DNA from: Candidatus Latescibacterota bacterium
GTDB taxonomy: Bacteria > Latescibacterota > UBA2968 > GCA-2709665
DNA length: 64,000 bases
Assembly (NCBI GenBank): GCA_965237675.1
Contig: OZ250150.1
Location: 4,864,001 to 4,928,000, forward strand
Direction of reading: 5' to 3'
Made by a program: the position numbers and the translations under genes. Shown here piece after piece: positions 18,803 to 53,277 of this stretch (position 1 is its first letter; every line of letters begins with the position of its first letter). The notes under the pieces were generated by a model. The model made no database searches, was not told where the DNA came from, and was given only the letters and a program-made list of their open reading frames with translations.

Positions 18803-20101
18803 ATGAAAGGGTCAACGGTTTCGAGCCTCATTCTTCTTTCTACAGCTGTCTTGTGTGCACAGTTCGCCCACGCGCAGGACTACAATCGCTGGCGCTTGCC
18901 CGAAGGGGCCCTATTGCGGCTGGGCAAGGGAGACGTTCGCGCCGTGGTCTGGTCGCCGGACGGCTCGCGCCTGGCCGTGGGGGGCACCGCCGGCATCTGG
19001 CTCTACGACCCCCTCACCGGGGCCGAAGTTTCACTGATCACGGGCCATACGAGAAGAGTCAATTCAATGGTATATTCGACGGATGGGACGATGCTGGCAA
19101 GCGCCGGTCACGACGGTACGTTGCGGTTGTGGGACGTGGCCACAGGACAGGAAAGGAGCACCATCAAAGCCCATTTCGGGTCCGTCACTTCGGTGGCGTT
19201 TTCGCCGGATGGGATGACGGTGGCAAGCGCTGGTTATGAAGGTCCGGTGCGGTTGTGGGACGTGGCCACAGGGCAGGAGAAAAGCACCCTGGAAGGACAT
19301 ACCAATTGGGTCTTGTCGGTCACGTTTTCGCAGGATGGGACAATGCTGGCAAGCGCCAGTCGTGACAGTACGATGCGGTTGTGGGACGTGGCCACAGGGC
19401 AGGAAAAACACACCCTCACAGGACATTCCGCTGGGGTCAGGTCGGTGGCGTTTTCGCCGGATGGGACGACGCTGGTAAGCGGCAGTTACGACCATATGGT
19501 GCGGTTGTGGGACGCGGCCACAGGGCAGGAAAAACACACCCTCACAGGACATACCGCCGGGGTCTATTCGGTGGCGTTCTCGCCGGATGGGACGACGGTG
19601 GCCAGCGCCGGTCGTGACCGTACGGTGCGGTTGTGGGACGCGGCCACCGGGCAGGAAGAAAGGACCCTCACAGGACATATACGGACTGTCGAGTCGGTGG
19701 CGTTTTCGCCGGATGGTAGGACGCTGGTAAGCGGCAGCCCCTACAACAGGATGCTGCTGTGGGACGTGGACACCTGGCAGGAAAAAGGCGCCCTGACAGG
19801 ACATACGTGGTATCTCGTGACGGTGGCGTTTTCGCCGGATGGGAGGACGCTGGCCAGCGGCAGTTACGACGGCACGATTCTGCTGTGGGATGTGTCGCCG
19901 TATGTCGCACATCCCACGCTTGCCGCAGATTTCGACGGTGACGGGATCGTGGGTTTTCCCGACTTTCTGCGGTTCGCGCCGCAGTTCGGTCAGACCCAGG
20001 GTGATGCCGGATTTGACGCGCGATTCGATCTGGACGGAGACGGTACTGTCGGATTCAGCGATTTTGTGATCTTCGCACGCAGCTTCGGCCTGGGTGGATG
20101 A
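18803..20101 (+). CDS. Secreted WD40 protein (8 repeats) with C-terminal paired EF-hand/dockerin-like domain
   Basis: Signal peptide AHA-QD; GH..V.SVAFSPDG..LAS...D..VRLWD repeats; DFDGDG..GF.DF twice. Confidence 0.92.
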   Translation: MKGSTVSSLILLSTAVLCAQFAHAQDYNRWRLPEGALLRLGKGDVRAVVWSPDGSRLAVGGTAGIWLYDPLTGAEVSLITGHTRRVNSMVYSTDGTMLASAGHDGTLRLWDVATGQERSTIKAHFGSVTSVAFSPDGMTVASAGYEGPVRLWDVATGQEKSTLEGHTNWVLSVTFSQDGTMLASASRDSTMRLWDVATGQEKHTLTGHSAGVRSVAFSPDGTTLVSGSYDHMVRLWDAATGQEKHTLTGHTAGVYSVAFSPDGTTVASAGRDRTVRLWDAATGQEERTLTGHIRTVESVAFSPDGRTLVSGSPYNRMLLWDVDTWQEKGALTGHTWYLVTVAFSPDGRTLASGSYDGTILLWDVSPYVAHPTLAADFDGDGIVGFPDFLRFAPQFGQTQGDAGFDARFDLDGDGTVGFSDFVIFARSFGLGG

Positions 20102-20264
20102 CACGAAAGCACCATGGCAGAAACTGGTCGCTCAAGGTCTGCATGATTGCCGGGAACCCGCCGCTCGTGCGTGATCGCGGCTCGCCAATGGTACCGTTGG
20201 CGGATATCTGTATTGACATTCTATCGATCTCCTGATAAGACGGCCCCTGAGAAGGAGGTGATAA

Positions 20265-20339: not shown

Positions 20340-20365
20340 CGCCGGTCTACTGCGTGTTCGCGTTA

Positions 20366-20545: not shown

Positions 20546-20574
20546 CTGAATTCCATCAAGCACAGTCTCTTCAT

Positions 20575-21126: not shown

Positions 21127-23178
21127 ATGAAAAGATCTACAATTCTGAGCCTCACTTTTGTATTTACCACCGTCTTATTTTCGGATGAAATCCACGCACA
21201 GGACTACAATCGCTGGAGCCTGCCTGAACGCGCCACGATGCGTCTGGGCAAAGGATACGTGCGCGACGTGGCCTGGTCGCCGGACGGAACGCGCCTGGCG
21301 GTTGGCACGAGCCCCGGCATCTGGCTCTACGATGCCGACACCGGCGCCGAAATTTCCCTGATCACGGGTCATACGGGAAGACTCAATTCGATGGTGTTTT
21401 CGCCGGACGGGACCACACTGGCAAGTGCAGGTCGCGACGGAACGTTGCGATTGTGGGACGTGGCCACCGGGCAGGAAAAAGGCAATATCAGAGCACATCC
21501 GCGGTCTGTCGAAACGGTGGCGTTTTCGCCGGATGGAACGACGCTGGCAAGCGACAGTTACGACGATAAGGTGCGGGTGTGGGACGTGGCCACCGGGCAG
21601 GAGAAAAGCAGCCTGGGGGGACATACGAGGGCTGTCCGTTCGGTGGTGTTTTCTCCGGATGGTCTGACGCTGGCAAGCGCGGGTTACGACAGTACGGTGC
21701 GGATGTGGGACGTGGCCACCGGACAGGAAAAACACATCCTCACAGAACACACGAATCGGGTCAATTCGGTGGTGTTTTCGCCGGATGGCCTGACGCTGGC
21801 AAGCGCCAGTCAGGACAGTACGGTACGGGTGTGGGACGTGGCCACCGGACAGGAAAAACACATCCTCACGGGAGGTACCGGGACGGTCTATTCGGTGACG
21901 TTCTCGCCTGACGGCATGACGCTGGCAAGCGGCTGCGGCGACGATACGGTGCGGCTGTGGGACGTGGCGGCAGGACGGGAGAAGGGCATCCTGGAAGGAC
22001 ATACCGGTTCGGTCATCTCGGTGGCGTTTTCGCCGGACGGGACGACGCTCGCAACCGGCAGTTACGACAGTACGGTGCGTGTGTGGGACGTGGCCACCAG
22101 GCAGGAAAAGCACACCCTCACAGGATATACGTCGCTGGTCAATTCTGTTGCGTTTTCGCCGGATGGGGCGACGCTGGCAAGCGGCATCAGCCGTACGGTG
22201 CGGTTGTGGAACGTGGAAACCGGACAGGAGAAGAGCACCCTTTCAGGACATAAGAATCGCGTCAGGTCGGTGGCGTATTCTCCGGATGGTCAGTCCCTGG
22301 CCAGTGGCGGCGATGATCGTACGGTGCGGGTCTGGGACGTCGCCACGGGGCAAGAAAAACACATCCTCACTGGAGACACCGGCCGCGTCTATTCGATCGT
22401 GTTTTCTCCGGACGGTCAGTTCTTGGCCAGTGGCGGCGATGATCGTACGGTGCGGATTTGGGACGTAGCTACGGGGGAGGAAGAACAAACCCTTACGGGA
22501 CATACCCAATGGGTCTTGTCGGTGGCGTTTTCTCCGGATGGGAAGATGCTGGCAAGTGGCAGTTGGGACGGTGCCGTTCTGCTGTGGGACGTGGCCACCG
22601 GCCAGCAGATAGACATCCTCACGGGACATACCCGTCCGGTCTGGTCACTGTCGTTTACGCTGGATGGGACAACGCTGGCAAGCGCCAGTTCTGACCGTAC
22701 GGTTCGGGTGTGGGACGTGGCCACCGGGCAGGAGATAAGCAGCCTGGAAGGACATAAGTTATTTGTCCGATCCGTGGCGTTTTCGCCAGATGGGACGACC
22801 CTTGCAAGCGGTAGCGACGACGGTACAGTTCGGGTGTGGGGCGTGGCCGCGGGGCAGGAAATAGGCGTCCTCGCTGGACATACCGATATTGTCTATTCGG
22901 TGGCGTTTTCGCCGGACGGGACGACCCTTGCAAGCGGCAGTAACGACGGCACGATTCTGCTGTGGGATGTGTCTCAGTATGTCGCACCTCAACCCCTTGT
23001 TACGGACTTCGATGGCGACGGAACCGTGGCTTTTCCCGACTTTCTGCAGTTCGCGGCGCAGTTCGGGCAAAGCCAGGGGAATGTGGGGTTTGATACCCGA
23101 TTCGATCTGGACGACGACGGTACCGTCGGGTTCAGCGATTTCGTTATCTTCGCACGCAGCTTCGGCCAGGGTGGATGA
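21127..23178 (+). CDS. Secreted WD40 protein (14 repeats) with EF-hand/dockerin-like tail
   Basis: Same architecture as 18803. Confidence 0.93.
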   Translation: MKRSTILSLTFVFTTVLFSDEIHAQDYNRWSLPERATMRLGKGYVRDVAWSPDGTRLAVGTSPGIWLYDADTGAEISLITGHTGRLNSMVFSPDGTTLASAGRDGTLRLWDVATGQEKGNIRAHPRSVETVAFSPDGTTLASDSYDDKVRVWDVATGQEKSSLGGHTRAVRSVVFSPDGLTLASAGYDSTVRMWDVATGQEKHILTEHTNRVNSVVFSPDGLTLASASQDSTVRVWDVATGQEKHILTGGTGTVYSVTFSPDGMTLASGCGDDTVRLWDVAAGREKGILEGHTGSVISVAFSPDGTTLATGSYDSTVRVWDVATRQEKHTLTGYTSLVNSVAFSPDGATLASGISRTVRLWNVETGQEKSTLSGHKNRVRSVAYSPDGQSLASGGDDRTVRVWDVATGQEKHILTGDTGRVYSIVFSPDGQFLASGGDDRTVRIWDVATGEEEQTLTGHTQWVLSVAFSPDGKMLASGSWDGAVLLWDVATGQQIDILTGHTRPVWSLSFTLDGTTLASASSDRTVRVWDVATGQEISSLEGHKLFVRSVAFSPDGTTLASGSDDGTVRVWGVAAGQEIGVLAGHTDIVYSVAFSPDGTTLASGSNDGTILLWDVSQYVAPQPLVTDFDGDGTVAFPDFLQFAAQFGQSQGNVGFDTRFDLDDDGTVGFSDFVIFARSFGQGG

Positions 23179-23366: not shown

Positions 23367-24960
23367 ATGAAAAGGTCTACGATTTCGAGCGTGATTTTTG
23401 TTTTGACGGCTGTCTTGTTCGCCCAGGACAGCCGCGCACAGGAGTACAATCGCTGGCGCTTGCCCGAAGGCGCCATTATGCGTCTGGGCAAAGGATACGT
23501 GTGGGACGTGGCCTGGTCGCCGGATCGCACGCGCCTGGCCGTCGGGGGCACCGTCGGCATCTGGGTCTACGATGCCAGCACCGGAGCGGAAGTTTCCCTG
23601 ATCACCGGACATTCCTTCAGAGTCAATGCGGTTGCATTTTCACCCGATGGTCTGACGCTGGCAAGCGGCAGTCGGGACCATACGGTGCGGTTGTGGGACG
23701 TGGCCACCGGAGAGGAAAAAAGCATCCTCACGGGACACAGGTACGACGTCGAGGCGGTGGCATTTTCGCCGGATGGGACAATGCTGGCAAGCGGCAGTCG
23801 CGACGGCACGGGTGTGGGACGTGGCCACAGGCCAGCAAAAACACAGGCTTATCAATGAAAAGTACCCGGATAGGTTGATTAATCCATGGGTCAGGGCGGT
23901 GGCATTCTCGCCGGATGGTCTGACACTGGCCAGCGCCGGAAACGACTCTACGGTGCGGGTGTGGGACGTGGAAACGGGACGGGAAAAGAGCACCCTGGAT
24001 GAACATACCCATTGGGTGTATTCGGTGGCGTTTTCTCCCGATGGGTTGACGCTGGCAAGCGCCAGCCGGGACAGTACCGTGCGGGTGTGGGACGTGGACA
24101 CAGGGCAGGAGAAGAGTACCCTCATAGGACATACGTCCGGCGTCCGATCGGTTGTGTATTCGCAGGATGGGGTGACGCTGGCAACCCGCAGTTTCGACAC
24201 CTCCGCGCGGGCGTGGACGGTGCGGGAGTGGGATTTGGAAACGGGGCGGGAGCAAAGCACCCTCACCCTCACAGGGCATACGTGGTCTGCCAATTCGGTC
24301 GTGTATTCGCCGGATGGGACAATGCTGGCAAGCGGCAGTAACGATCGTACGGTGCGGTTGTGGGACGTGGCCACAGGGCAGCATATACGCACCTTCGCAG
24401 GACATACCCGTGGGGTCGGTCCGGTGGCGTTTTCGCCGGATGGGACAACTGTGGCAGGCGGTGGCGGCTATCGGGACGCAACGGTGCGGTTGTGGGACGT
24501 GGCCACAGGGCAGGAGAAACACACCCTCACAGTACGTGGAGAGAATTTCTTTTCGGTGGCGTTTTCGCCGGATGGCATGACGCTGGCAACCAGCAGTCCG
24601 TACAAGGCGGTTTGGCTGTGGGACGTGGCCACAGGGAGAAACATACGCGCCCTCAAAGGACATACCGATCCAATCTGGTCGGTAGCGTTTTCGCCGGACG
24701 GCAGGACGCTGGCAAGCGCCAGCTACGACTGCACGATTCTGCTATGGGATGTCTCCTCACGTGACGCGTTGCAACCTCTTGCTGCCGACTTCGACGGCGA
24801 CGGGGTCGTGGGCTTTTCCGATTACCTGCAATTCGTCGCGAAGTACGGGCTGCGCTGGGGAGATCCGGGATATGACGCGCGCTTCGATCTGGACGGGGAC
24901 GGTGAAATCGGGTCCCGCGATTGGTGGATCTTCGGGAAAAGCTTCGGCCGGGGTACCTGA
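23367..24960 (+). pseudogene. WD40/EF-hand gene (~10 repeats) split by a 5-bp deletion at ~23810
   Basis: GACGGCACG-GGTGTGGGAC versus paralog GACGGCACGGTGCGGGTGTGGGAC (~25820); ORFs 23367-23858 and 23773-24960. Confidence 0.85.
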
Positions 24961-25384: not shown

Positions 25385-27460
25385 ATGAAAAGATCTGCGA
25401 TTTTGAGCCTCACTCTTATTTTGACCGCTAGCCTGTATGTACAGAACAGCCACGCGCAGGACTACAATCGCTGGAGTCTGCCCGAAGGCGCCCGCATGCG
25501 TCTGGGCAAAGGAAACGTGCTCGACGTGGCCTGGTCGCCGGACGGCACGCTCCTGGCCGCGGGGGGCACTGCCGGCATCTGGGTCTACGATGCCCACACC
25601 GGCGCGGAAATTTCCCTGATCACAGGACATTCGTTCAGAGTCAATGCGGTTGCGTTTTCACCCGATGGTCTGACGCTGGCAAGTGGCAGTCGGGATGATA
25701 CGGTGCGGTTGTGGGACGTGGAAACGGGACAGGAAAAGAGCATCCTCACGGGACATAGGTACGACGTCGAGGCGGTGGCATTCTCGCAGGATGGAACGAC
25801 GCTGGCAAGCGGCAGTCGCGACGGCACGGTGCGGGTGTGGGACGTGGCCACCGGGCAGGAAAAACATACCCTCCTGAATGAAAAGTACCGGGGATTGCTG
25901 AATAAGCCCTGGGTGTATTCGGTTGCGTTTTCGGCCGATGGTCTGACGCTGGCAAGCGCCAATCGGGACAGTACCGTGCGGGTGTGGGACATCGCCACCG
26001 GACAGGAAAAGCATACGCTCACCGGACACACCCATCGGGTCTGGTCGGTGGCGTTTTCGCCCGACGGTAAGACACTTGCCAGTGCAAGTCTGGACAGTAC
26101 GGTGCGGCTGTGGGACCTGGAAACGGGGCAGGAAAAGAGCACCCTCGAAGGACATACTCATCGGGTGTATTCGGTGGCTTTTTCGCCCGATGGTCTGACG
26201 CTGGCAAGCGCCGGTCGGGACAGTACCGTGCGGGTGTGGGACGTGGCCACCGGGCAGGAGAAACACACCCTCACAGGACATACTCATCGGGTGTATTCCG
26301 TGGTGTTTTCGCAGGACGGGATGATGCTGGCAAGCCGCAGTTACGACAATACGGTCCGGACATGGGACGTGGAAACGGGGCAGGAGAGTAGCATCCTACG
26401 CCTTACAGGGCATACACAATCTGTAAACTCGCTGGCGTTCTCGCCGGACGGGCAGACCCTTGCAAGCAGCGGTAACGACCCCGGCATCCGGTTGTGGGAC
26501 GTGGCCACAGGACAGGTAAAAAGCACTTTCGCAGGACATGGGTCGGTGGCGTTCTCGCCGGATGGGACCACGCTGGCAACCGCCGGCGGCCGGGACGGAC
26601 CGATGCGGTTATGGGACGCGGCCACAGGACAGGAGAAACACACCCTCACAGGACATACGTCACCTGTAGAGTCGGTGGCGTTCTCGCCGGATGGGACCAC
26701 GCTGGCAAGCGCCGACGGTCACGACGAAACGGTGCGGTTGTGGAACGTGACCACAGGGAAGGAGAGACACACCCTCGTAGGACATATTGATAGAGTTGGG
26801 ACGGTGGCGTATTCGCCGGATGGATCGACGCTCGCAAGCGCTGGTGGAGACAGCACGGTGCGGTTGTGGAACCCAGCCACAGGGCAAGAGAAAAACACGC
26901 TCACAGTACATGCCTATTGGATCCACGAGTTGGCGTTTTCGCCCGATGGGGCGACGCTTGCAGGCTCCGATTCTCGGGGTACGTTGCGGTTGTGGGACGC
27001 GGCCACAGGGCAGGAGAAAAACACCCTCACAGTACGTGGCGAGAATTTCTTCTCGGTGGCGTTTTCGCCCGATGGGACGACACTGGCAACCAGCAGTCCG
27101 TACAGGGCGGTATGGCTGTGGGACGTGGCCACCGGGCAGAATATACGCGCCCTCAGAGGACATACAGCTCCGATCTGGTCGGTGGCGTTTTCACCGGACC
27201 GCAGAACGCTGGCAAGCGCCAGTTACGACGGTACGATTCTGCTGTGGGATGTCTCGTCACGTGACGCGCTGCAACCCCTTGCCGCCGACTATGATGGCGA
27301 CGGAACCGTGGGCTTTTCCGACTTTCTGCAATTCGTCGCGAAGTACGGGCTGAGCTGGGGAGATGCGGGATATGACGCGCGCTTCGACCTGGACGGGGAC
27401 GGTGAAATCGGGTCCCGCGATTGGTGGATCTTCGGGAAAAGCTTTGGCCGGGGTAACTGA
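25385..27460 (+). CDS. Secreted WD40 protein (14 repeats) with EF-hand/dockerin-like tail
   Basis: GHSFRV subfamily; tail nearly identical to 24700-24960. Confidence 0.93.
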   Translation: MKRSAILSLTLILTASLYVQNSHAQDYNRWSLPEGARMRLGKGNVLDVAWSPDGTLLAAGGTAGIWVYDAHTGAEISLITGHSFRVNAVAFSPDGLTLASGSRDDTVRLWDVETGQEKSILTGHRYDVEAVAFSQDGTTLASGSRDGTVRVWDVATGQEKHTLLNEKYRGLLNKPWVYSVAFSADGLTLASANRDSTVRVWDIATGQEKHTLTGHTHRVWSVAFSPDGKTLASASLDSTVRLWDLETGQEKSTLEGHTHRVYSVAFSPDGLTLASAGRDSTVRVWDVATGQEKHTLTGHTHRVYSVVFSQDGMMLASRSYDNTVRTWDVETGQESSILRLTGHTQSVNSLAFSPDGQTLASSGNDPGIRLWDVATGQVKSTFAGHGSVAFSPDGTTLATAGGRDGPMRLWDAATGQEKHTLTGHTSPVESVAFSPDGTTLASADGHDETVRLWNVTTGKERHTLVGHIDRVGTVAYSPDGSTLASAGGDSTVRLWNPATGQEKNTLTVHAYWIHELAFSPDGATLAGSDSRGTLRLWDAATGQEKNTLTVRGENFFSVAFSPDGTTLATSSPYRAVWLWDVATGQNIRALRGHTAPIWSVAFSPDRRTLASASYDGTILLWDVSSRDALQPLAADYDGDGTVGFSDFLQFVAKYGLSWGDAGYDARFDLDGDGEIGSRDWWIFGKSFGRGN

Positions 27461-27980: not shown

Positions 27981-28919
27981 ATGAAAAAGCGAACGATATT
28001 TGGCACCCTCATTCTGTTGACGGCCGTCTTGATCGCCCAGGACAGCCTCGCGCAGGATTATAATCGCTGGAATCTGCCCCAAGGAGCCCGCATGCGTCTG
28101 GGCAAGGGAAACGTGCTCGACTTGGCCTGGTCGCCGGACCGCACGCGCCTGGCCGCGGGGGGCACCGCCGGCATCTGGCTCTACGATGCCCACACCGGCG
28201 CGGAAATTTCCCTGATCACTGGACATTCGTTCAGGGTCAATGCGGTTGCGTTTTCGCCCGATGGTCTGACGCTGGCAAGTGGCAGTCAGGACGATACGGT
28301 GCGGTTGTGGGACGTGGCCACCGGAGAGGAGAAAAGCATCCTTACGGGACACAGGTACGACGTCGAGGCGGTGGCATTCTCGCATGATGGGACATTGCTG
28401 GCAAGCGGCAGTCGCGACGGCACGGTGCGGGTGTGGGACGTGGCCACAGGGCAGGAAAAAAGTACCCTCGTCAATGAAAAGTACCAGGGTAGGTTTAATA
28501 ACCCCTGGGTCGTGTCGGTTGCGTATTCGCAGGACGGGATAAGCCGCAGCTTCGACAATGCGGTGCGACAGTGGGACGTGGAAACCGGGCTGGAGACGGG
28601 CACCCTCAGACTTCCAGGGCATACCTCCGCCGTCCAGTCGGTTGTGTATTCGCCGGACGGGAAGATGCTGGCAAGCGGCGGTAGCGACGGTACGATTCTG
28701 CTGTGGGATGTCTCGTCACGTGCCGCGCTGCAACCCCTTGCTGCCGATTTCGATGGCGACGGGACCGTGGGCTTTACCGACTTTCTGCAATTCGCCGCGA
28801 AGTTCGGGCTGAACTGGGGAGATGCGGGATATGACTCCCGCTTTGATCTGGACAACGACGGGGATATCGGGTATCCCGATTGGTCCATCTTGCGAAAAAG
28901 CTTTGGCCGGGGTTCCTGA
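27981..28919 (+). CDS. Short secreted WD40 protein (5 repeats) with EF-hand tail; internally deleted paralog
   Basis: GHSFRV subfamily; one repeat shortened (YSQDGISRSFD). Confidence 0.85.
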   Translation: MKKRTIFGTLILLTAVLIAQDSLAQDYNRWNLPQGARMRLGKGNVLDLAWSPDRTRLAAGGTAGIWLYDAHTGAEISLITGHSFRVNAVAFSPDGLTLASGSQDDTVRLWDVATGEEKSILTGHRYDVEAVAFSHDGTLLASGSRDGTVRVWDVATGQEKSTLVNEKYQGRFNNPWVVSVAYSQDGISRSFDNAVRQWDVETGLETGTLRLPGHTSAVQSVVYSPDGKMLASGGSDGTILLWDVSSRAALQPLAADFDGDGTVGFTDFLQFAAKFGLNWGDAGYDSRFDLDNDGDIGYPDWSILRKSFGRGS

Positions 28920-29083: not shown

Positions 29084-31270
29084 ATGAAAAGGTCAACGAT
29101 TTTCGGCCTCATTCTTCTCTCGACATCTTTCTTGCTTGCACAGGACTCCCTCGCACAGGATTACACTCGCTGGGGACTGCCCGAAGGGGCCCTCATGCGT
29201 CTGGGCAAAGGAGACGTGCGCGCGGTGGTCTGGTCGCCGGACGGCACGCGCCTGGCGGTGGGCAGCAGCCTCGGCATCTGGCTCTACGATCCGCGCACCG
29301 GGGCCGAAGTTTCCCTGATTACGGGCCAGATGTCCATAGTCGGGCCGGTGGTGTTTTCGCCGGATGGGTCGACCCTGGCAAGCAACGGTGCGGACAATAC
29401 GGTGCGGTTGTGGGACGTGGCAACCGGGCAGGAAAAACATATGCTCACAGGACATACGGATAGGGTTCAGTCGGTGGTGATTTCACCGGACGGGATGACG
29501 CTGGCAAGCAGCGGTTCGGACAATACGGTGCGGTTGTGGGACGTGGCCACGGGGCAGGAAAAACACACGCTTACAGGACATACCCGTGGGGTCGGCCCAG
29601 TGGCGTTTTCGCCGGATGGGATCACGCTGGCAAGCGGCAGTAGCGACCATACGGTGCGGTTGTGGGACGTGGCCACAGGCCAGGAAAAACACACCCTCAC
29701 AGGACATACCTGGTTTGTCATTTCGATGGCGTTTTCGCCGGATGGGACCACGCTGGCAAGCGGCAGTTACGACCATACGGTGCGGTTGTGGGACGTGGCC
29801 ACAGGCAACGCAAAGGCAACCCTCGAAGGCCATACGGATTTTGTTACACCGCTGGTGTTTTCTCCGGATGGTCAGACTCTGGCCAGTGCAGCTCAAGGTC
29901 GGGGTAATGACCAAACGGTACGGTTGTGGAACGTGGCCAGCGGCCGGGAAAGACACACCCTCATTGGACATACTGAAACTGTCAACTCGGTGGTGTTTTC
30001 ACCGGATGGGCTGACGCTGGCAAGCGGCAGTCGTGACGATACGGTACGGTTGTGGGACGTGGCCACAGGGCAGGAAAAAATCACCCTCACAGGACATACC
30101 GGTAATGTCGGCTCCGTGGTGTTTTCGCCGGATGGGACCACGCTGGCAAGCGGCAGCAGAAACGATGCGGTGCGGTTGTGGGACGCGGCCACCGGCGAGG
30201 AAAAAAACGTCTTCACCGGACATTCGCCTTTGATCAATTCGGTGGCGTATTCGCCGGATGGGACGACCCTGGCCAGCGGCGGTAATGACCGTACGTTGCT
30301 GTTGTGGGACATCGCTACGGCACAGGTAAGACACACCCTCACTGGACATACCAGTACTGTTGTTGCTTCCGTGGCATTTTCACCGGATGGGACGACGCTG
30401 GCAAGCGGCAGTTGGGACAAAACGGTACGTTTGTGGGACGTGGCCGAGGCGCAGGAGAATATCACCCTGACGGAACATACGAATAGGGTCCAATCGGTGG
30501 CGTTTTCGCCGGATGGGACGACCCTGGCCAGCGGGAGTTGGGACCATACGGTGCGGTTGTGGGACGTGGCAAGCGGCCGGGAAAGACACACCCTCACAGA
30601 ACATACCGATGTCGCCACTTCGGTGGTGTTTTCACCTGACGGGATGACGTTGGCAAGCGGAAGTCGGGACCATACGGTGCGGTTGTGGGACGTGACCACG
30701 GGAGAGATAAGATCCACCCTGACGGGACATTCCCACTGGGTCAATCCGGTGGCGTTATCGCCGGATGGGACGATGCTGGCAAGCGGCGGCCCGGACAATA
30801 CGTTGCTGTTGTGGGACGTGGCTACCGGGCAGGTGAGACACACCCTCGCTGGACATACCTTCTTCGTCGACTCCGTGGCGTTTTCGCCGGATGGGACGAC
30901 GCTGGCAAGCGGCGGCTCGGACAGTACGGTGCGGTTGTGGGACGTGGCCACGGGAGAGGAGAAAGGCATCCTGCCAAGTGGGGCCAAGTCGGTGGTGTTT
31001 TCACCGGACGGGAGGACCCTTGCCAGCGGCAGTTACGACGGCGCGATTCTGTTGTGGGATATATCGCCGTATGTCGCGCCTCCAACCCTTGCTGCCGACT
31101 TCGACGGCGACGGGACCGTGGGTTTTCCAGACTTTCTGCAATTCGCGGCGCAAGTCGGGCTGAGCCAAAGCGATGCCGGGTATGACGCGCGCTTCGATCT
31201 GAACGGCGACGATACCGTCGGGTTCAGCGATTTCGTGATCTTTGCACGCAGCTTCGGTCAAAGTGCATGA
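29084..31270 (+). CDS. Secreted WD40 protein (15 repeats) with EF-hand/dockerin-like tail
   Basis: Same architecture. Confidence 0.93.
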   Translation: MKRSTIFGLILLSTSFLLAQDSLAQDYTRWGLPEGALMRLGKGDVRAVVWSPDGTRLAVGSSLGIWLYDPRTGAEVSLITGQMSIVGPVVFSPDGSTLASNGADNTVRLWDVATGQEKHMLTGHTDRVQSVVISPDGMTLASSGSDNTVRLWDVATGQEKHTLTGHTRGVGPVAFSPDGITLASGSSDHTVRLWDVATGQEKHTLTGHTWFVISMAFSPDGTTLASGSYDHTVRLWDVATGNAKATLEGHTDFVTPLVFSPDGQTLASAAQGRGNDQTVRLWNVASGRERHTLIGHTETVNSVVFSPDGLTLASGSRDDTVRLWDVATGQEKITLTGHTGNVGSVVFSPDGTTLASGSRNDAVRLWDAATGEEKNVFTGHSPLINSVAYSPDGTTLASGGNDRTLLLWDIATAQVRHTLTGHTSTVVASVAFSPDGTTLASGSWDKTVRLWDVAEAQENITLTEHTNRVQSVAFSPDGTTLASGSWDHTVRLWDVASGRERHTLTEHTDVATSVVFSPDGMTLASGSRDHTVRLWDVTTGEIRSTLTGHSHWVNPVALSPDGTMLASGGPDNTLLLWDVATGQVRHTLAGHTFFVDSVAFSPDGTTLASGGSDSTVRLWDVATGEEKGILPSGAKSVVFSPDGRTLASGSYDGAILLWDISPYVAPPTLAADFDGDGTVGFPDFLQFAAQVGLSQSDAGYDARFDLNGDDTVGFSDFVIFARSFGQSA

Positions 31271-31352: not shown

Positions 31353-31665
31353 TTCGGAAAGGAGGTGATATTGGAATCCATGTCGTTAAGTGTCGGACCG
31401 CAGTACATCTACGTGAGAAACTACGGCCCGGGGCAAGTGCTGAACGGCAAGTTGCGCAATGGGAGCGGTCGAGCAATGCCGCCGACCAACGTACACCAGG
31501 TCTCTTCATTTCGCCTTCACTCGCTCAGGTCATTTCAAGAATCACATCAATCACAGTCTCTCCATTTGGGTTTAATCACAGTCCATCATCGTAATCATAG
31601 TTAATCACAGTCAATCTTAGTCCGGGGGGTATTCAGATGATCAAGTTAACGTTTTCGAGCCTCAT
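31353..31665 (+). repeat. Cassette B plus WD40 gene start, identical by eye to 41916-42228
   Basis: 313-bp direct repeat at offset 10563; includes a B ORF extended to 77 aa (31371-31604). Confidence 0.85.
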
Positions 31666-37921: not shown

Positions 37922-37999
37922 CCCTACGTGCCAATATAGAGTGAGACAACTCCCCATCCGAGTTTAGTGTAGGTTTGAGGGCGGAGAGGAGAGCAAGAG

Positions 38000-39477: not shown

Positions 39478-39658
39478 ATTCTCACGCGAGGTGTCTCATT
39501 CCTATTGACATGTTCCGGACCAATGTACACCGGGGCTCTCCATAAATCCATCACTCGCTCCAGGCCATTACAAAAATCACATCAATCACAGTCTCTTCAT
39601 GCGGTTTAATCACAGTTAATCCCTCGTAATCAAAGTTAATCACAGTCAGGGGGTACAG

Positions 39659-42199: not shown

Positions 42200-44248
42200 A
42201 TGATCAAGTTAACGTTTTCGAGCCTCATGCTCTTTTTTACGACTGTCTTGTTTGCACAGAACATCCGCGCACAGGACTACAATCGCTGGAGCTTGCCCGA
42301 AGGAGCGCTCGTGCGGCTGGGCAAAGGAGACGTGCGCGACGTCACCTGGTCGCAGGACGGCACGCGCCTGGCCGTGGGGGGCACCGCCGGCATCTGGCTC
42401 TACGATGCCCAGACAGGTGATGAAATTTCGCTGCTCACAGGCCATACGAGAAGAGTCAATCATGTGGTGTATTCGACGGATGGGTCGATGCTGGCCAGCG
42501 CCGGTCACGATGGTACCATGCGGTTGTGGGACGCGGCCACCGGACAGGAAAAAAGCACCATCGAAGCCCATCGCGGGTCTGTCACGTCGGTGGCGTTTTC
42601 ACCGGATGGAACGACGGTGGCAAGCGTCGGTTATACGAACGAGGTGCGGTTGTGGGACGTGGCCACAGGGCAGGAGAAAAGCACTCTGAGCGGGCATACC
42701 CGGAGGCTCAGGTCGGTGGTGTTCTCGCCGGATGGGACGACATTGGCAAGCGCCAGTGAAGACAGTACGGCGCGGCTGTGGGACGTGGCCACAGGGCAGG
42801 CAAAACACACCCTGACGGGACATAGGTGGTTTGTCAATTCTGTGGCGTTTTCGCCGGATGGGACGACATTGGCAAGCGCCAGCAATGACAGTACGGTGCG
42901 GTTGTGGGACGTGGCCACAGGGCAGGTAAGACACACCCTCACAGGACATCCCCATTGGGTCCGTTCGGTGGTGTTTTCGCCCGACGGGACCACGCTGGCA
43001 AGCGGCAGTACAGACCGTACGGTGTGGTTGTGGGATATGGCCACCCGACAGAAGAAAGGCATCCTCACAGGCCACACAGGTGGGGTCATCTCGGTGGCGT
43101 TTTCGCCGGATGGGATGACCCTGGCAAGCGGCAGCTCGGACAATACGGTGCGGGTGTGGGACGTCGCAACGGGGCAGGAAAAAGGCACTATCACGGGACA
43201 CACGCCTTTTGTCTGGTCGGTGGCGTTTTCGCCGGATGGGACCACGGTGGCAGGCGCCAATAGCGACGGTACGATACGACTGTGGGACGTGACCACCTGG
43301 CAGAAAAAAAGCACACTCGGAGGGGACATGCGCAGGCTCAGGTCGGTGGCGTTTTCGCCCGATGGGACGATGCTGGCAAGCGGCGGCACTGATGTGCGGT
43401 TGTGGGACGTGGCGACGGGGGAGGGAAAAAGCACTCTCACAGGACATACCCGTGCTGTCGGTTCGGTGGTGTTTTCGCCGGATGGGACCACCCTGGCAAG
43501 CGGCAGTGATGATGATACGGTGCGGTTGTGGGACGTGGCCACAGGGCAGGTAAAACGCGCCCTGACAGGACATACCCATGATGTCAGGTCGGTGGCGTTT
43601 TCGCCGGATGGGACCACCCTGGCAAGCGGCAGTTACGACCACACGGTGCGGTTGTGGGACGTGGCCACCGGACAGGAACAAAGCACCCTCACAGGACATA
43701 CGTCCTGGGTCACTTCCGTGGTGTTTTCGCCGGATGGGATGACAGTGGCAAGCGGCAGTCGTGACAATACGGTGCGGTTGTGGAACGTGACCACAGGGCG
43801 GGAAAAACACACCCTCACAGGACATGAGCGGAATGTCGAGTCGGTGGCGTTCTCACCTGATGGGAGAACGCTGGTAAGCGCCAGTCACGACAACAAAATG
43901 CTGCTTTGGGACGTGGACACCTGGCAGGAAATAGGCGTTCTTACAGGACATACGTGGATAATCGCTTCGGTGGCGTTCTCGCCGGATGGGCAGATCCTGG
44001 CAAGCTGCAGTTACGACGGCACGATTCTACTGTGGAATGTCTCCCCGTATGTCGCACCTCAATCCCTTGTTGCCGACTTCGACGGCGACGGGACCGTGGG
44101 TTTTCCCGACTTCTTGCAGTTTGCGTCGCAGTTCGGTCAGAGCCAGGACGACGCCGGATTTGACGCGCGCTTCGATCTGGACAGCGACGGCACCGTCGGG
44201 TTCAACGATTTCGTGATCTTCACACGCAGCTTCGGCAACGGTACGTGA
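42200..44248 (+). CDS. Secreted WD40 protein (14 repeats) with EF-hand/dockerin-like tail
   Basis: GHTRRV subfamily; tail nearly identical to that of 39659. Confidence 0.93.
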   Translation: MIKLTFSSLMLFFTTVLFAQNIRAQDYNRWSLPEGALVRLGKGDVRDVTWSQDGTRLAVGGTAGIWLYDAQTGDEISLLTGHTRRVNHVVYSTDGSMLASAGHDGTMRLWDAATGQEKSTIEAHRGSVTSVAFSPDGTTVASVGYTNEVRLWDVATGQEKSTLSGHTRRLRSVVFSPDGTTLASASEDSTARLWDVATGQAKHTLTGHRWFVNSVAFSPDGTTLASASNDSTVRLWDVATGQVRHTLTGHPHWVRSVVFSPDGTTLASGSTDRTVWLWDMATRQKKGILTGHTGGVISVAFSPDGMTLASGSSDNTVRVWDVATGQEKGTITGHTPFVWSVAFSPDGTTVAGANSDGTIRLWDVTTWQKKSTLGGDMRRLRSVAFSPDGTMLASGGTDVRLWDVATGEGKSTLTGHTRAVGSVVFSPDGTTLASGSDDDTVRLWDVATGQVKRALTGHTHDVRSVAFSPDGTTLASGSYDHTVRLWDVATGQEQSTLTGHTSWVTSVVFSPDGMTVASGSRDNTVRLWNVTTGREKHTLTGHERNVESVAFSPDGRTLVSASHDNKMLLWDVDTWQEIGVLTGHTWIIASVAFSPDGQILASCSYDGTILLWNVSPYVAPQSLVADFDGDGTVGFPDFLQFASQFGQSQDDAGFDARFDLDSDGTVGFNDFVIFTRSFGNGT

Positions 44249-48777: not shown

Positions 48778-51700
48778 ATGAAAACGTCTTCGTCGTTCGG
48801 CCTCGTTCTTCTGTCAATCGGTGTCCTATCAGCACAGGATGCACGTACACAGGACCATACTCGCTGGGGCCTGCCCGAAGGGGCCGTCTCACGACTGGGC
48901 AAAGGAAACATCGGCACTGGCGACCGCGCGATTGCCTATTCGCCGGACGGCAGGCGGATCGCTGTGGCCGGTAATATAGGGATCTGGCTCTACGATGCCC
49001 ACACCGGGGCCGAATTGGCCCTGCTCACGGGTCATGCGTCTTCGGTAACTTCGGTGGCGTTTTCGCCCGACGGAACCACACTGGCAAGTGGCAGCTGGAA
49101 GGAGATTCGGTTGTGGGACGTGGACACCGGGCAGATAAAATACACGCTCACAGAAGGTATTTCGCGTGTGACATCCGTGGTGTTTTCACCGGATGGAACC
49201 GTCCTGGCAGGCGCCGGCGGATTGCGGATTCGTTTGTGGGACGTGGACAGCGGCCAGGGAAAACACACTTTCACAGGACATGCTGATGTGGTCCGTTCGG
49301 TGGCGTTTTCGCCCGACGGAAACACCCTGGCCAGCGCCGGCGGGTCACGGATCCTGTTGACGGACATACATACGGCTCAGGAAAAACGCATCCTCACGGG
49401 ACATACTGATGCGGTCCGTTCGGTGGCATTTTCGCCCGACGGAAACACCCTGGCCAGCGCCGGCGCCGACAATACAGTGCGATTTTGGGACGTGGACACC
49501 GGGCAGATTAATCACACGCTACGAGGACACTGGCTGCCTGTTACTTCGGTGGCGTTTTCGCCCGATGGAAATACCCTGGCAAGTGGTGGTGGAGACAACA
49601 CCGTGCGGTTGTGGGACGCCCGCACCGCACAGGAGACAGACTCCCTCTCAGAACACACGTCCGCAGTGACTTCGGTGGCGTTTTCGCCCGATGGAAACAC
49701 CCTGGCAAGCGCCGGTGGTTCGGGGATCCGGTTGTGGGACTTGGGCACAAGACGGGTAAGACACACCCTTGCGGAACATCTGGTAAACGTTTCTTCGGTG
49801 GCGTTTTCGCCTGATGGAAATACCCTGGCAAGTGGTGGTGAAAACCCGGTGTTGTGGGACCTGGCCACTGGCCAGGTGAAATCCCGCCTGGTTGGACATA
49901 TATCGTCTGTTACTTCGGTTGCGTTTTCGCCTGATGGGAACACCCTGGCAAGCGCCAGTACGGACACGACGGTGCGTTTGTGGGACGTGCATACCGGGCA
50001 GGTAAAACACACCCTGCGAGGGCACAGGTGGAATGTCAGATCGGTGGCGTTTTCGCCCGATGGGAACACGCTGGCGAGCGGAAGTGACGACCGCACGATA
50101 CGGCTATGGGACGTCGCCACAGGCACGGAAAAACATGTACTGACATTACAATGGGGGTCTGTTACTTCGGTGGTGTTTTCTCCCGGTGGGAACACGCTGG
50201 CAAGCGGAAATGACAACCGTACGATACGGCTATGGGACGTCGCCACAGGCACGGAAAAACATGTACTAACGGGCCATGGAAGCGACGTCTCTTCACTGGC
50301 GTTCTCACCCGACGGAAGGACACTGGCCAGTGGGGGCGGGAGGGCGATTCGGTTGTGGAACGTGGACACCGGCGAGTTGGAATACACACTCACGGAACAG
50401 ACGTCCTCGGTCCATTCGATCGCGTTTTCGTCGAATGGGAAGACCCTGGCAAGCGGCAGTTTCGACAATCAGGTGCGGTTGTGGGACGTGGACACGGGCA
50501 AGGAAACAGACACGCTCACAGGACATAGAGGCAGCGTGCTTTCGGTATCGTTTTCGCCCGATGGAACCACCCTGGCAAGCGGCAGCGTCGACGGTACGAT
50601 TCTCGTCTGGCAAAAGTCCGAGTGGGCGGGGGCCGATCCCGACGGACCCACGGACGGGTTAACACCGGCCGGAATCTCACGATGGGGATTGCCCGAAGGC
50701 GCTATCGCCCGCTTCGGCAAAGGCGGGATTGGCAGTGGCGACCGGGCGGCTGCCTGGTCGCCGGACGGCGCGCTGCTGGCCGCGGCCAGCAGCATCGGTA
50801 TCTGGCTCTACGATGCCCACACCGGGGTCGAAGTCGCCCTGCTCGCGGACCATAATTATTGGGTCAATGCGGTAGCGTTTTCGCCTGATGGAAATACCCT
50901 GGCAAGTGGTGGTGAAAACGCGGTGTTGTGGGACCTGGCCACTGGCCAGGTGATATACCGCCTGGATGGACATATATCGTCTGTTACTTCGGTTACGTTT
51001 TCGCCCGATGGACGTACGCTGGCCAGCGGGAGCAGGGACAATACGATTCGGTTGTGGGACGTGACCACGGGACAGGAAAAACACACCCTCGCAGGGCATT
51101 CGGATCCGGTCCGATCGGTGGCCTTTTCGCCCGATGGACGTACGCTGGCCAGCGGGAGCAGGGACGCAACGGTGGGGTTGTGGAACGTCTTCACGGGACA
51201 GGAAAAACACACCCTTACAGGACATACGTCTTCGGTTATTTCGGTGGCTTTTTCGCCTGATGGAAGCACGCTGGCCAGTGGAGGCGGCGACGCCGTGTTG
51301 TGGGAAGTGGCCACCGGCGAGAAAAAACACATTCTCGAACATCGTCTGGGTGTCACTTCGGTCGCGTACTCCCCCGATGGACGTACACTGGCCAGTGCAT
51401 CCTTTAGCGACACCCCCGGAGAAAATACGATACGGTTGTGGGACACGGCCACCGGGCGGAAGAAATCCAACTTCACGGGACCTACGTGGGAAGTCAATTC
51501 GGTGGCGTTCTCGCCCGATGGACGCACACTGGTCAGTGCCAGTCAGTCCGACAGGATTCGGCTGTGGGACGTGGCCACCGTACGGGAGAAAAACGCCATC
51601 ACTGGACATGGGTCTTTCGTTACTTCGGTGGCGTTGTCACCCGACGGGAACACCGTGGCCTACAGCGATAACAGCCCCACGGTGCGGGTGTGGGACGTGG

Positions 51701-53277
51701 CCACCGGTAGGGGCAAAAACATCCTCACAGGACATACGGCTCCGGTGAATTCGGTGGCGTTCTCGCCCGATGGAACCACCCTGGCGAGCGCCAGCTGGGA
51801 GGAGATTCGCTTGTGGGACATGGCCATAGGACAAGTAAAAAACATCCTCACAGGGCATACGTACTCGGTCAATGCAGTGGCGTTTTCGCCCAATGGGATC
51901 ACTTTAGCCAGCGCCGGTCGGGACGGGACCGTACGTTTGTGGGACGTGGCCACAGGACAGGCAAAAAACATCCTCACAGGCCATTCGAATGATGTCCTTT
52001 CGTTGGCGTTCTCACGCGATGGACGCACACTGGCAAGCGGCGGTTATGATAGGAAAATCCTGCTTTGGGACGTTGTCACCGGGCGAAAAAACGCTCTTCC
52101 GGAACATCAGAGTGCGGTCCGTTCCTTGGCCTTTTCCCCCGATGGAAGCACGCTGGCCAGCGCAAGCGGCGGGAATATGGTGTTGTTGCGGAACCTTGAC
52201 ACCGGGCAGGAAAGACACACCCTCACGGGACATTCCTGGTACGTTATCTCGGTGTCTTTCTCGCCCGATGGAACCACCCTGGCCAGCGCCGCCAAGGACG
52301 ACGAGACCGTGCGCTTGTGGGACACGGCCACTGGAGAGGAGAAAAACACCCTTACAGGACATAGGAGGGGTGTCTCTTCGGTGGTGTTTTCGCCCGGTGG
52401 AACCACACTGGCAAGCGGCAGTGAAGACGGTACAGTCCTCCTTTGGGATACATCGGTTAGTGGGAGGACCGATCCGGACAAACCCACGGACGTGGAAAAG
52501 CCGGGTGAGCTCAGCGGGGTCCGGCCGGATGAACTCGTCGGAAAGTGGAAAGCGGTCATATCCGGCAGCGGAGCGGATACGACCCGTGTCTTCGAGTTCC
52601 TCGCCGACGGCCGATTCACCGGTAGCGAAAAGGCCGCTGCCCACGAATCCATGAAACAGTTTCTTATTCTGGAATGGGGGGCCGACCCGGGACGGGTCGA
52701 GTACGTGGCAGACTCGCTGGCGACGAAAGCGTCCAGGTTCTACGATGCACTCGTTGCTGACAAGCGGGTGTCTACCACCGAGATGACAGGAACCTGGGGC
52801 GTGGACGGTAACGTCATCCAAGCCGTCGTCGACAGCTTTTCGCTTTCGATTAACGCCCTTCATGGGAACGACGTATTCGATTTTTATGAAGAAATCATTC
52901 CGCTGGTCGTCCCGGCCGAGAATGCCGGGTTGGCAGGCTTTGCCCTACTGGCTTTCTCTCGCCTTCAACAGAGTCTGGATACCCTCGTTGAAGAGCGCGT
53001 GGTCTTCAAAATTGGCAGGTATACCGTCGAGAACGAAAATCTGGTCGTAGTTCAGGATCAGAACCCGGTTCGATATACGCGTGTGTCGGAAACGACAACG
53101 CCCGACTTCGACGGCGACGGGTCTGTGGGATTTTCCGACTTTTTATTGTTTGTGGGGCAGTTCGGGCTGCGCCAGGGTGATGCGGGGTATGACGGGCGTT
53201 ACGACCTGGACGGTGACGGTGCCATCGGGTTCAGCGACTTTCTGATCTTTGTCGGCAGCTTCGGCAATAGCGCCTGA
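48778..53277 (+). CDS. Double WD40-module protein (~28 repeats) with unknown domain and EF-hand/dockerin-like tail
   Basis: Second N-cap ISRWGLPEGAIARFGKG at ~50680; non-WD domain at ~52530-53090; DFDGDG pair. Confidence 0.92.
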   Translation: MKTSSSFGLVLLSIGVLSAQDARTQDHTRWGLPEGAVSRLGKGNIGTGDRAIAYSPDGRRIAVAGNIGIWLYDAHTGAELALLTGHASSVTSVAFSPDGTTLASGSWKEIRLWDVDTGQIKYTLTEGISRVTSVVFSPDGTVLAGAGGLRIRLWDVDSGQGKHTFTGHADVVRSVAFSPDGNTLASAGGSRILLTDIHTAQEKRILTGHTDAVRSVAFSPDGNTLASAGADNTVRFWDVDTGQINHTLRGHWLPVTSVAFSPDGNTLASGGGDNTVRLWDARTAQETDSLSEHTSAVTSVAFSPDGNTLASAGGSGIRLWDLGTRRVRHTLAEHLVNVSSVAFSPDGNTLASGGENPVLWDLATGQVKSRLVGHISSVTSVAFSPDGNTLASASTDTTVRLWDVHTGQVKHTLRGHRWNVRSVAFSPDGNTLASGSDDRTIRLWDVATGTEKHVLTLQWGSVTSVVFSPGGNTLASGNDNRTIRLWDVATGTEKHVLTGHGSDVSSLAFSPDGRTLASGGGRAIRLWNVDTGELEYTLTEQTSSVHSIAFSSNGKTLASGSFDNQVRLWDVDTGKETDTLTGHRGSVLSVSFSPDGTTLASGSVDGTILVWQKSEWAGADPDGPTDGLTPAGISRWGLPEGAIARFGKGGIGSGDRAAAWSPDGALLAAASSIGIWLYDAHTGVEVALLADHNYWVNAVAFSPDGNTLASGGENAVLWDLATGQVIYRLDGHISSVTSVTFSPDGRTLASGSRDNTIRLWDVTTGQEKHTLAGHSDPVRSVAFSPDGRTLASGSRDATVGLWNVFTGQEKHTLTGHTSSVISVAFSPDGSTLASGGGDAVLWEVATGEKKHILEHRLGVTSVAYSPDGRTLASASFSDTPGENTIRLWDTATGRKKSNFTGPTWEVNSVAFSPDGRTLVSASQSDRIRLWDVATVREKNAITGHGSFVTSVALSPDGNTVAYSDNSPTVRVWDVATGRGKNILTGHTAPVNSVAFSPDGTTLASASWEEIRLWDMAIGQVKNILTGHTYSVNAVAFSPNGITLASAGRDGTVRLWDVATGQAKNILTGHSNDVLSLAFSRDGRTLASGGYDRKILLWDVVTGRKNALPEHQSAVRSLAFSPDGSTLASASGGNMVLLRNLDTGQERHTLTGHSWYVISVSFSPDGTTLASAAKDDETVRLWDTATGEEKNTLTGHRRGVSSVVFSPGGTTLASGSEDGTVLLWDTSVSGRTDPDKPTDVEKPGELSGVRPDELVGKWKAVISGSGADTTRVFEFLADGRFTGSEKAAAHESMKQFLILEWGADPGRVEYVADSLATKASRFYDALVADKRVSTTEMTGTWGVDGNVIQAVVDSFSLSINALHGNDVFDFYEEIIPLVVPAENAGLAGFALLAFSRLQQSLDTLVEERVVFKIGRYTVENENLVVVQDQNPVRYTRVSETTTPDFDGDGSVGFSDFLLFVGQFGLRQGDAGYDGRYDLDGDGAIGFSDFLIFVGSFGNSA

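Follow-up and report, generated by a model that had tools for sequence, protein, structure and literature searches.

A tandem array of predicted exported WD40 propellers with C-terminal dockerins in a Candidatus Latescibacterota genome

The DNA considered here, hereafter the window, is a stretch of 64,000 nucleotides from a Candidatus Latescibacterota genome (GenBank assembly GCA_965237675.1, contig OZ250150.1, positions 4,864,001 to 4,928,000). The genome is rated 99.9% complete and 8% contaminated, and the window lies in a 5.6-Mb contig; the labels and the literature suggest that the bacterium may inhabit a sponge. Within positions 18803-53277 of the window, 12 open reading frames (ORFs), all on the plus strand and designated G01 to G12 below, encode proteins built of WD40 repeats on a fixed scaffold. 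We describe the array, the evolution of its repeats, and the module at the C-terminus of its proteins, and favour its interpretation as an inherited set of exported propellers that would be docked on cohesin-bearing proteins.

Results

Twelve WD40 genes in tandem

A preliminary description of this locus, made from the sequence alone, recognised 12 secreted-type WD40 propeller genes, and this part of it stands. The 12 ORFs share a signal-like N-terminus and an N-cap, and the six of them that were scanned match Pfam PF00400 with E values of 1e-44 to 1e-267 (146-853 bits versus a cut-off of 27). A hidden Markov model (HMM) built from 90 seed units counts 8, 14, 8, 14, 5, 15, 14, 14, 9, 15, 14, and 28 blades in G01 to G12. 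The 8 blades of G03 are complemented by 3 from the upstream ORF 23367-23858, together 10, and the counts given previously (8, 14, 10, 14, 5, 15, 14, 14, ~9, 15, 14, and ~28) are all reproduced. In each of the 12 N-termini, 1-3 K/R among the first six residues precede an uncharged stretch of 14-17 residues, and the N-cap motif Q[DE][YH]xR[WL]xLPx[GR]AxxR[LF]GKG begins exactly at residue 25. This pattern is that of a Sec signal peptide with predicted cleavage after A24 (T24 in G12). Eleven of the genes end in the same tail of ~60 residues, which is absent from G09.

The most common form, consisting of the N-cap blade, 13 further blades, and the C-terminal dockerin discussed below, is represented by G02 (21127..23178; 683 amino acids [aa]), G07 (31637..33685; 682 aa; the member chosen for structure modelling), G08 (34168..36231; 687 aa), G11 (42200..44248; 682 aa), and, with a dockerin of a second subtype, G04 (25385..27460; 691 aa). 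The N-cap blade is followed by 14 blades and the dockerin in G06 (29084..31270; 728 aa) and G10 (39659..41833; 724 aa), by 7 canonical blades and the dockerin in G01 (18803..20101; 432 aa, with the signal peptide), and by 4 blades and the dockerin in the short form G05 (27981..28919; 312 aa). The longest gene, G12 (48778..53277; 1499 aa), contains two modules of N-cap blade and 13 blades, ~215 unassigned residues, and a dockerin, and its repeats are the most divergent of the array; the segment between its last blade and the dockerin (residues ~1225-1440, window 52450-53097) gives only weak Pfam matches (GH43_C lipocalin-like, E 0.026). Two genes are broken. G03 (23367..24960; ~10 blades and dockerin) is split by a 5-nt deletion near 23805-23812 into ORFs 23367-23858, on which its signal peptide sits, and 23773-24960, and is either a pseudogene or an assembly error. 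G09 (36713..37939) is a mosaic gene that is cut at 37921 by an IS3-type insertion sequence (IS) on the plus strand (37921..39517; 1598 bp; orfA 38000-38467, orfB with an rve domain 38464-39477). A second copy of this element, 99.6% identical, is located at C1:3052250-3053847.

Repetitive loci invite the suspicion that near-identical repeats have inflated or scrambled the assembly and that the real locus holds fewer genes. The region is indeed repetitive, the genome carries the contamination estimate given above, and the short-read contigs of two studies (X1 and X2), which cover every bin of the region, do not exceed 1402 nt and have many repeat-mediated joints, being too short to confirm or refute the gene order. 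However, the paralogues differ by 23-40% in protein sequence and the repeats are 0.73 identical over their scaffold codons, which is enough to assemble them; the array lies in a 5.6-Mb contig; and independent related genomes contain syntenic arrays of 9-11 or more such genes. Furthermore, two DNA runs, each from another study, cover all 30 bins, and no letter differs in 13 of the 16 pieces listed. We therefore regard misassembly of the array as extremely improbable.

Five variable positions on a conserved blade

The positional analysis covered 147 canonical repeats (E 1e-8), of which 111 have a length of exactly 42 residues; positions are numbered in the register V1-A-T-G-Q ... W41-D42. Among the latter, entropy exceeds 3 bits only at positions 15, 16, 18, 34, and 36 (3.56, 3.60, 3.49, 3.51, and 3.08, respectively), within the two motifs, GH(T)xxVx and ASxxxDx, to which the variation had already been assigned. 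Positions 8, 27, 14, and 9 are intermediate (2.62, 2.56, 2.37, and 2.06), and all others remain at or below 1.86. The His, Ser/Thr, Asp, Trp tetrad of WD40 blades is retained in most of the 111 repeats (H13 0.90, S31 0.90, D35 0.89, and W41 1.00). Indels map to the loops that hold these five positions; one of them is an insertion of 7 residues shared by blade 3 of G03, G04, and G05. At the variable sites, R (16.7%), N, S, G, Y, and W are frequent, and A, L, I, and V are scarce; relative to the long ORFs of the genome, W, N, and Y are enriched 4.3-, 3.9-, and 3.0-fold. In total, 131 distinct five-residue signatures are found among the 147 blades.

An AlphaFold (AF2) model of G07, obtained with an alignment of 21 family members (pLDDT 81.9), is all beta, and the best PDB match of this protein is 2ymu_A, a "highly repetitive propeller" with 51% identity (E 3.7e-63). 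In the model, residues 34-68, corresponding to the "N-cap", form a four-stranded blade of their own, so that the "14 repeats" comprise this cap blade and 13 canonical ones, a number sufficient for two seven-bladed propellers. The strands occupy positions 5-11, 17-22, 28-33, and 38-42 of each 42-residue unit; therefore, positions 15, 16, and 18 fall at the D-A loop and the start of strand A, and positions 34 and 36 in the B-C loop. In the WD40 topology, the D-A and B-C loops form the top face of the propeller. Read on this textbook topology, the secondary structure of the model confines the variation to the predicted top-face loops.

Repeats group by blade position

The preliminary description considered the repeat DNA to be highly conserved and drew an analogy to the concerted evolution known from fungal HET-E. 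Two words of the repeat DNA do recur 106 and 118 times with at most 3 mismatches (16 and 25 exact copies), all on the plus strand and against 0 expected, but the conservation is restricted to these short stretches: pairwise identity averages 0.70 across the full 126 nt and 0.73 when only scaffold codons are counted. With G12 left out, scaffold identity is 0.756 within genes versus 0.750 between genes, and the mean pairwise repeat identity inside individual genes is 0.49-0.64. We built a FastTree phylogeny of all 147 repeats from scaffold codons only and compared the number of label changes on it with that for shuffled labels. The gene label changes 91 times, compared with 107.8 times after shuffling and 11 times under strict grouping by gene, an outcome that the preliminary description named as counting against its inference and that is not seen. 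By contrast, the position class of the blade (first, second, internal, penultimate, or last) changes 15 times versus 34.5 times. For the internal blades of nine genes, the gene label changes 43 times versus 47.5 times. The repeats thus group by blade position and not by gene, indicating that there is no HET-E-like concerted evolution or within-gene homogenisation and that whole genes were duplicated from an ancestor that already had multiple blades.

Recombination between paralogues is real but occasional. G09 is a mosaic: it is 94-100% identical to G08 over 36400-36499, upstream of the gene, and over 37200-37921, whereas over 36800-37199 its identity to G04/G05 is 85-94% and that to G08 no more than 72-84%. 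The IS begins where the identity of G09 to G08 stops. A second case is found in the orthologue of G11, in which blades r09-r11 show synonymous differences (pS) at scaffold codons of 0.15-0.23 versus 0-0.12 in the remaining ten blades, eight of which do not exceed 0.04; in r09 and r10, four of the five variable residues are changed in each. Three genes, G01, G03, and G05, appear to derive from G07-like and G04-like genes by in-frame loss of blades, G05 being G04-like. A short-read contig from X1 joins position 26541 of the window to 26671 within G04, skipping 129 nt (43 codons, approximately one blade), and its two flanks have 38 letters in common. The joint reflects either a population variant that has lost a blade in frame or an artefact of de Bruijn assembly.

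Two further possibilities were considered and set aside. Four matches to RVT_1 are present in the genome but none in the window, the nearest (C1:4792506) being ~90 kb from the array, and diversification by a diversity-generating retroelement was rejected because the window lacks a reverse transcriptase. An origin of the genes in a eukaryotic host was discounted because the nearest relatives in both sequence and structure are bacterial.

Paralogues are retained across species

In a species-representative genome collection, the closest relatives carry the label Candidatus Latescibacterota or, in some cases, Gemmatimonadota, and have the same architecture in tandem arrays. The N-terminus of the family (signal peptide, cap, and first blade) is present in 42 of 61 related genomes and in all 14 of the same genus. 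A protein search with residues 1-111 was dominated by summed repeat matches of long WD40 proteins, few of them named, and was not used for delimiting the family. One-to-one orthologues were found for G11 (L001:3001-5046, 92% identical), G04 (L006:5401-7488, 82%), G10 (L008:4738-6912, 81%), and G02 (L004:2940-4991, 79%). Within the window, no paralogues reach these values; the most similar pair, G07 and G11, shares 77% identity. Even at the variable positions, 49 of 64, 45 of 63, 47 of 68, and 38 of 64 residues (59-77%) are identical between orthologues. Collectively, these results show that the individual paralogues are old and have been retained across species.

Tandem WD40 genes also occur in genomes labelled Rhodothermales or Rhodothermaceae (L013, L015, L017, L019, L021, L022, L026-L028, L039, and L053-L055), where they have a different signal-peptide-like N-terminus; a pattern search found neither the N-cap nor the dockerin in them. 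They may represent a parallel expansion of exported propellers in another lineage.

Selection on scaffold and variable sites

The blade scaffold is under strong purifying selection, with ratios of nonsynonymous to synonymous rates (omega) of 0.16-0.33 by the Nei-Gojobori method and 0.25 by maximum likelihood (ML). For the variable sites, an arms race is an alternative, in which top-face residues would be under pervasive positive selection and the repeats continually shuffled and homogenised, as in fungal HET-E/NWD proteins. Several numbers favour it. The ratio of nonsynonymous divergence (dN) at variable sites to synonymous divergence (dS) of the scaffold is 1.09-2.93 in the six pairs among G02, G07, G08, and G11, and a blade bootstrap excludes 1 in five of these six pairs, which are not independent of each other. 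The dS in the non-repeat N-terminus and tail (0.19-0.82) is similar to or above that of the scaffold, so this yardstick is not obviously depressed. The ratio is 2.22 for G11 and its 92% identical orthologue, between which blade r06 changed three of its five variable residues with zero scaffold replacements, and both the G09 mosaic and the r09-r11 patch of the G11 orthologue testify to some exchange.

Nevertheless, the remaining orthologue pairs yield ratios of 0.56, 0.58, and 1.00, and the ratio falls to 0.15 for blades 1-2 of G04, G05, G09, and G03 and to 0 for the recent G08/G09 copy. When each site class is given its own synonymous rate in an ML analysis (GY94 on a fixed tree of 21 collinear 14-blade genes, a single-tree assumption that recombination violates), omega at the variable sites is 0.86 (F1X4), 0.62 (F3X4), or 0.71 (MG), and fixing it at 1 gives 2dlnL = 2.17, i.e., it is not distinguishable from 1. 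The semi-variable sites have an omega of 0.80, the scaffold 0.25, and the non-repeat parts 0.37. Estimates for the five single variable positions (0.36-1.05) were based on 12-13 codons per fit, many of them stuck at the start value, and were not used. The preservation of 59-77% of variable residues between species, the equal likeness of repeats within and between genes, their clustering by position, and internal repeat identities far below those of freshly homogenised arrays also speak against an arms race, which we consider quite unlikely. At the variable sites, ratios above 1 are obtained only against scaffold dS, and the ML estimates are 0.62-0.86. We conclude that the variable sites are nearly unconstrained and evolve, on average, at about the neutral rate. 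The average conceals a heterogeneous pattern, in which many blades keep all five variable residues across species and others are replaced wholesale; the per-blade variance of variable-residue changes exceeds the binomial expectation in all four orthologue pairs (e.g., 2.52 versus 0.89). Positive selection, if any, may have been episodic rather than pervasive.

It follows that the earlier interpretation of the array as an antibody-like set of binders diversified by repeat shuffling goes too far on mechanism: the repeats show no concerted evolution, positive selection is not demonstrated, and no machinery for diversification was seen. What remains of it is a multigene set of predicted exported propellers with a fixed scaffold, whose members differ mainly on one face, and some recombination among paralogues, as seen in G09 and the G11 orthologue, but without rapid turnover, given that orthologues are still 79-92% identical.

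The C-terminal tail is a dockerin

The tail had been described as a calcium-binding segment carried by all but the IS-truncated gene. Its distribution was thus correctly seen, but its identity was missed: by profile and by fold, the tail is a dockerin, and it is shared with some 100 ORFs of the genome. Within ~60 residues, it holds a DFDGDGxVxFxDF and a DLDGDGxVxFxDF segment, with a helix after each. A profile made from 27 tails aligns with the solved dockerin 2y3n_B over 59 positions in a single stretch (E 1.1e-11), whereas matches to calmodulin are partial and limited to EF-hand loops. When the tail was modelled alone (pLDDT 89.6), the 17 best Foldseek matches were all dockerins from cohesin-dockerin complexes, the first ten with a root-mean-square deviation of 1.0-1.7 Å and a TMq of 0.65-0.76. 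Two dockerin subtypes, ..AKYGLSWGD..GEIGSRDWWIFGKSFGRG.. and ..AQFGQSQGD..GTVGFSDFVIFARSFGQG.., separate the tails of G03, G04, and G05 from those of the other genes, and might address different cohesins.

Within a multigene family found across the lineage, the array forms the largest cluster. A six-frame census of the genome revealed 39 ORFs with at least 3 WD repeats, and an HMM of the tail matches 100 ORFs, 65 of them within 12 residues of the C-terminus; 33 ORFs carry both the tail and at least 3 WD repeats. Many of the non-WD proteins have the dockerin module directly after the signal peptide. Twenty of the 67 tail-bearing ORFs with fewer than 3 WD repeats were scanned, and include subtilases/S8 (2), leucine-rich repeat (LRR) proteins (4), fn3/cadherin proteins (3), heparinase II/III-like proteins (2), an M10 protease with a propeller, an LDL-receptor-B propeller, a further WD40 protein, an Ig-like protein, one ORF with an EF-hand match alone, and four without a family.

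Potential partners are few. The cohesin family PF00963 has 6 matches above the Pfam cut-off, in 5 ORFs of the genome, all of which also have a C-terminal FlgD_ig match and three of which give matches to Por_Secre_tail, the sorting-domain type of the type IX secretion system (T9SS). In one of these cohesin ORFs, L085 (C1:3572434-3574830), WD40 blades, cohesin, and dockerin occur together. Another, L086 (C1:4145323-4146120), with 266 residues comprising a signal peptide, a cohesin, and a T9SS-like C-terminal domain, is a candidate surface anchor. The genome also contains a match to SprA_N (96.9 bits). Overall, ~100 dockerin-module ORFs with Sec-type N-termini stand beside one SprA_N match, 7 Por_Secre_tail matches, and no secretin match.

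This inventory bears on where the propellers reside. Beta-propellers such as TolB are periplasmic, and the array proteins could likewise be structural or scaffolding propellers of the periplasm or of the inner face of the outer membrane, the dockerin-like module serving as a calcium-stabilised domain or an intra-periplasmic tether and not as a surface tag. Consistent with such a role, the N-termini are Sec-type only and have a weak TolB match (E 0.0035), none of the 7 Por_Secre_tail matches of the genome lies in a WD gene, and a search of the 99.9%-complete genome found no secretin. However, the cohesin proteins carry T9SS-type C-termini, implying a surface location; the module is also found on proteases, polysaccharide lyases, and adhesin-like fn3/cadherin/LRR proteins, all of them typically extracellular kinds; and 131 different top faces in 147 blades are hard to square with a housekeeping function in the envelope. 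A periplasmic role therefore seems quite improbable.

Upstream regions and neighbouring genes

The upstream regions of G01 and G04-G11 are homologous to each other, indicating that upstream DNA was duplicated together with the genes, and each WD gene has its own GGAGG-like site ahead of the ATG. The homologous regions contain 3-7 copies each of the 10-nt word TAATCACAGT, an example being 18419..18778 on the plus strand; the word has 33 matches in the window versus 1.5 expected. Besides 18419-18778, it occurs upstream of most WD genes at 31548-31611, 36626-36688, 39583-39646, 42111-42174, and 45634-45677. A role as a WD-specific operator was rejected, since 12 of its 19 clusters in the genome lie away from WD genes, and the largest comprises 21 copies at C1:1582310-1583068; TAATCACAGT is a dispersed intergenic repeat.

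Downstream of the array, a gene on the plus strand (53399..60796) encodes an LRR/GLUG protein of 2465 aa, which matches the dockerin-module HMM near its N-terminus, the module ending 2225 residues before the C-terminus. Beyond the window (C1:4929643-4973147), there are further WD40-dockerin ORFs and dockerin-tagged LRR proteins. The cluster runs on past the window, and the island of dockerin-tagged repeat proteins therefore spans roughly 90 kb. Between G11 and G12, ORF 46281-47921 encodes a secreted PKD/fn3 protein with choice-of-anchor-like repeats. A Por_Secre_tail match (24.8 bits) at 47892-48131 extends this ORF across one TAG, and its sorting domain therefore seems to be cut off by the stop codon.

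Discussion

In the present study, we arrive at the following picture of the array. Each protein starts with a Sec-type signal peptide and a degenerate N-cap blade, continues with canonical blades of 42 residues, usually 13 of them (two seven-bladed propellers), and has the dockerin at its C-terminus. The genes arose by duplication of whole multi-blade genes, followed by divergence, in-frame loss and gain of blades, and occasional recombination between paralogues. Each propeller would present its own, largely stable binding surface, and its dockerin would attach it, via calcium, to one of the few cohesin-bearing proteins of the genome; the cohesin carriers with T9SS-type C-terminal domains would sit on the cell surface. 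Docking on cohesin scaffolds is considered probable. The cell would thus display a fixed, inherited panel of binders next to dockerin-tagged LRR, fn3/cadherin, protease, and lyase proteins. We assign a probability of roughly 60% to this reading as a whole, namely, that the array is an inherited repertoire of exported propellers that are docked on cohesin scaffolds and evolve slowly rather than in an antibody-like manner.

Several observations weigh against it. The tail narrowly misses the curated cut-offs of both Pfam Dockerin_1 (22.4 versus 22.9) and NCBIfam dockerin_GC (20.4-22.7 versus 29), and six cohesin domains for ~100 dockerin modules make a very uneven ratio. The WD proteins are without the T9SS C-terminal domain, and the genome without a detectable secretin, as described above. 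The top-face placement of the variable sites derives from secondary structure and textbook WD40 topology and not from model coordinates. Given the damage to G03 and G09, the array may be decaying in part, and G05, with 5 blades only, may fail to close a propeller. In the RNA runs X21 and X22, the shares covered are 0.07 and 0.06, with pieces mostly on the IS, which provides no evidence of array transcription; one 303-nt piece falls on the 3' end of G07, with 5 differing letters.

A more far-reaching possibility is a "bindosome", in which cohesin-dockerin pairing, otherwise a means of assembling enzymes, would have become a general platform for display and would mediate host or prey recognition in a symbiosis. 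In such a scheme, ~100 dockerin-tagged proteins would plug into a handful of T9SS-anchored cohesin carriers. Among this cargo would be LRR, fn3/cadherin, and protease modules as well as about 33 WD40 propellers, which between them offer over 100 different top faces. With the SprA translocon present, no secretin found, and a cargo without T9SS C-terminal domains, the cargo might exit through the T9SS bound to a cohesin carrier. We offer this as speculation, and consider it doubtful at present.

If the docking model is true, the array would be a clear case of dockerin-cohesin pairs displaying binding modules instead of enzymes, and the "eukaryote-like" WD40 proteins of symbiont genomes would gain a defined architecture, a place in the cell, and a partner that can be tested. 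The family is also a natural library, with one rigid scaffold and 131 five-residue surfaces in 147 blades, which should be useful for studying how propeller specificity is encoded. Finally, it illustrates that hypervariable top-face positions in repetitive WD40 proteins alone imply neither concerted evolution nor an arms race.

Comparison with known systems

Fungal HET-E/HET-D/NWD proteins, the model behind the earlier interpretation, are likewise built of 42-residue WD repeats, a few positions of which, located in the same loops as in the array, are hypervariable. They are, however, cytoplasmic NOD-like receptors (NLRs) with NACHT and effector domains, and their repeats are homogenised within the gene. 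The array proteins, by contrast, are predicted to be exported and have no nucleotide-binding domain, no within-gene homogenisation, and an ML omega at the variable sites that is not distinguishable from 1. Their blades start at residue 34, after the 24-residue signal-like segment, which leaves no room for a NACHT/NB-ARC or effector domain. Fungal NLRs with WD40 repeats are treated in PMC12222747 and PMC13449251.

Among prokaryotes, WD40 proteins have been described by the thousand, and the highly repetitive ones are reported by Hu et al. 2017 (PMC5587647) to be conserved except at diverse hotspot sites on the predicted top face. The blade consensus, the multi-propeller build, and the DHSW-type tetrad positions of those proteins and of the Nostoc 14-blade protein 2YMU are common to the array, to which the signal peptide, the N-cap blade, the C-terminal dockerin, and the arrangement of paralogues in tandem are added. 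The repeat identity of 0.49-0.64, obtained here with a simpler metric, corresponds to the "moderately repetitive" band of that study (0.4-0.7), below the "highly repetitive" one (at least 0.7). The terms "signal peptide" and "secreted" are absent from PMC5587647.

Sponge-associated genomes, including those of Latescibacterota, are enriched in WD40, LRR, fn3, and related domains according to PMC12993501 and PMC10947273, where WD40 is counted among eukaryote-like proteins for sponge-associated Latescibacterota and for other sponge symbionts, respectively. These papers count domains (ankyrin, LRR, TPR, and WD40) and, as far as their accessible text goes, describe neither the protein plan nor the arrays nor the variable-site pattern reported here. 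Literature searches on dockerin/cohesin and on signal-peptide WD40 proteins in sponge symbionts, subscription journals being outside the coverage, returned no account of dockerin-tagged WD40 arrays.

The likeness to cellulosomes lies in the tail, which matches solved dockerins in profile and fold, and in the cohesins encoded by the same genome; cellulosome-affiliated enzymes in Latescibacteria are mentioned in PMC7081726, citing Farag 2017. Unlike in cellulosomes, the cargo here consists mostly of repeat/adhesion domains and proteases, not cellulases, its binding is predicted, the dockerin may stand at either end of the protein, and the cohesin carriers have T9SS-type C-termini, not surface-layer homology (SLH) anchors. 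WD40 proteins with a T9SS sorting domain, in turn, resemble the array in being exported bacterial propellers, one match being named "T9SS type A sorting domain-containing protein" and several listing PF13860, but the array genes end in a dockerin in place of the T9SS C-terminal domain. The dockerin is thus the new element, tying this WD40 family to ~100 dockerin-tagged proteins and a few cohesin carriers.

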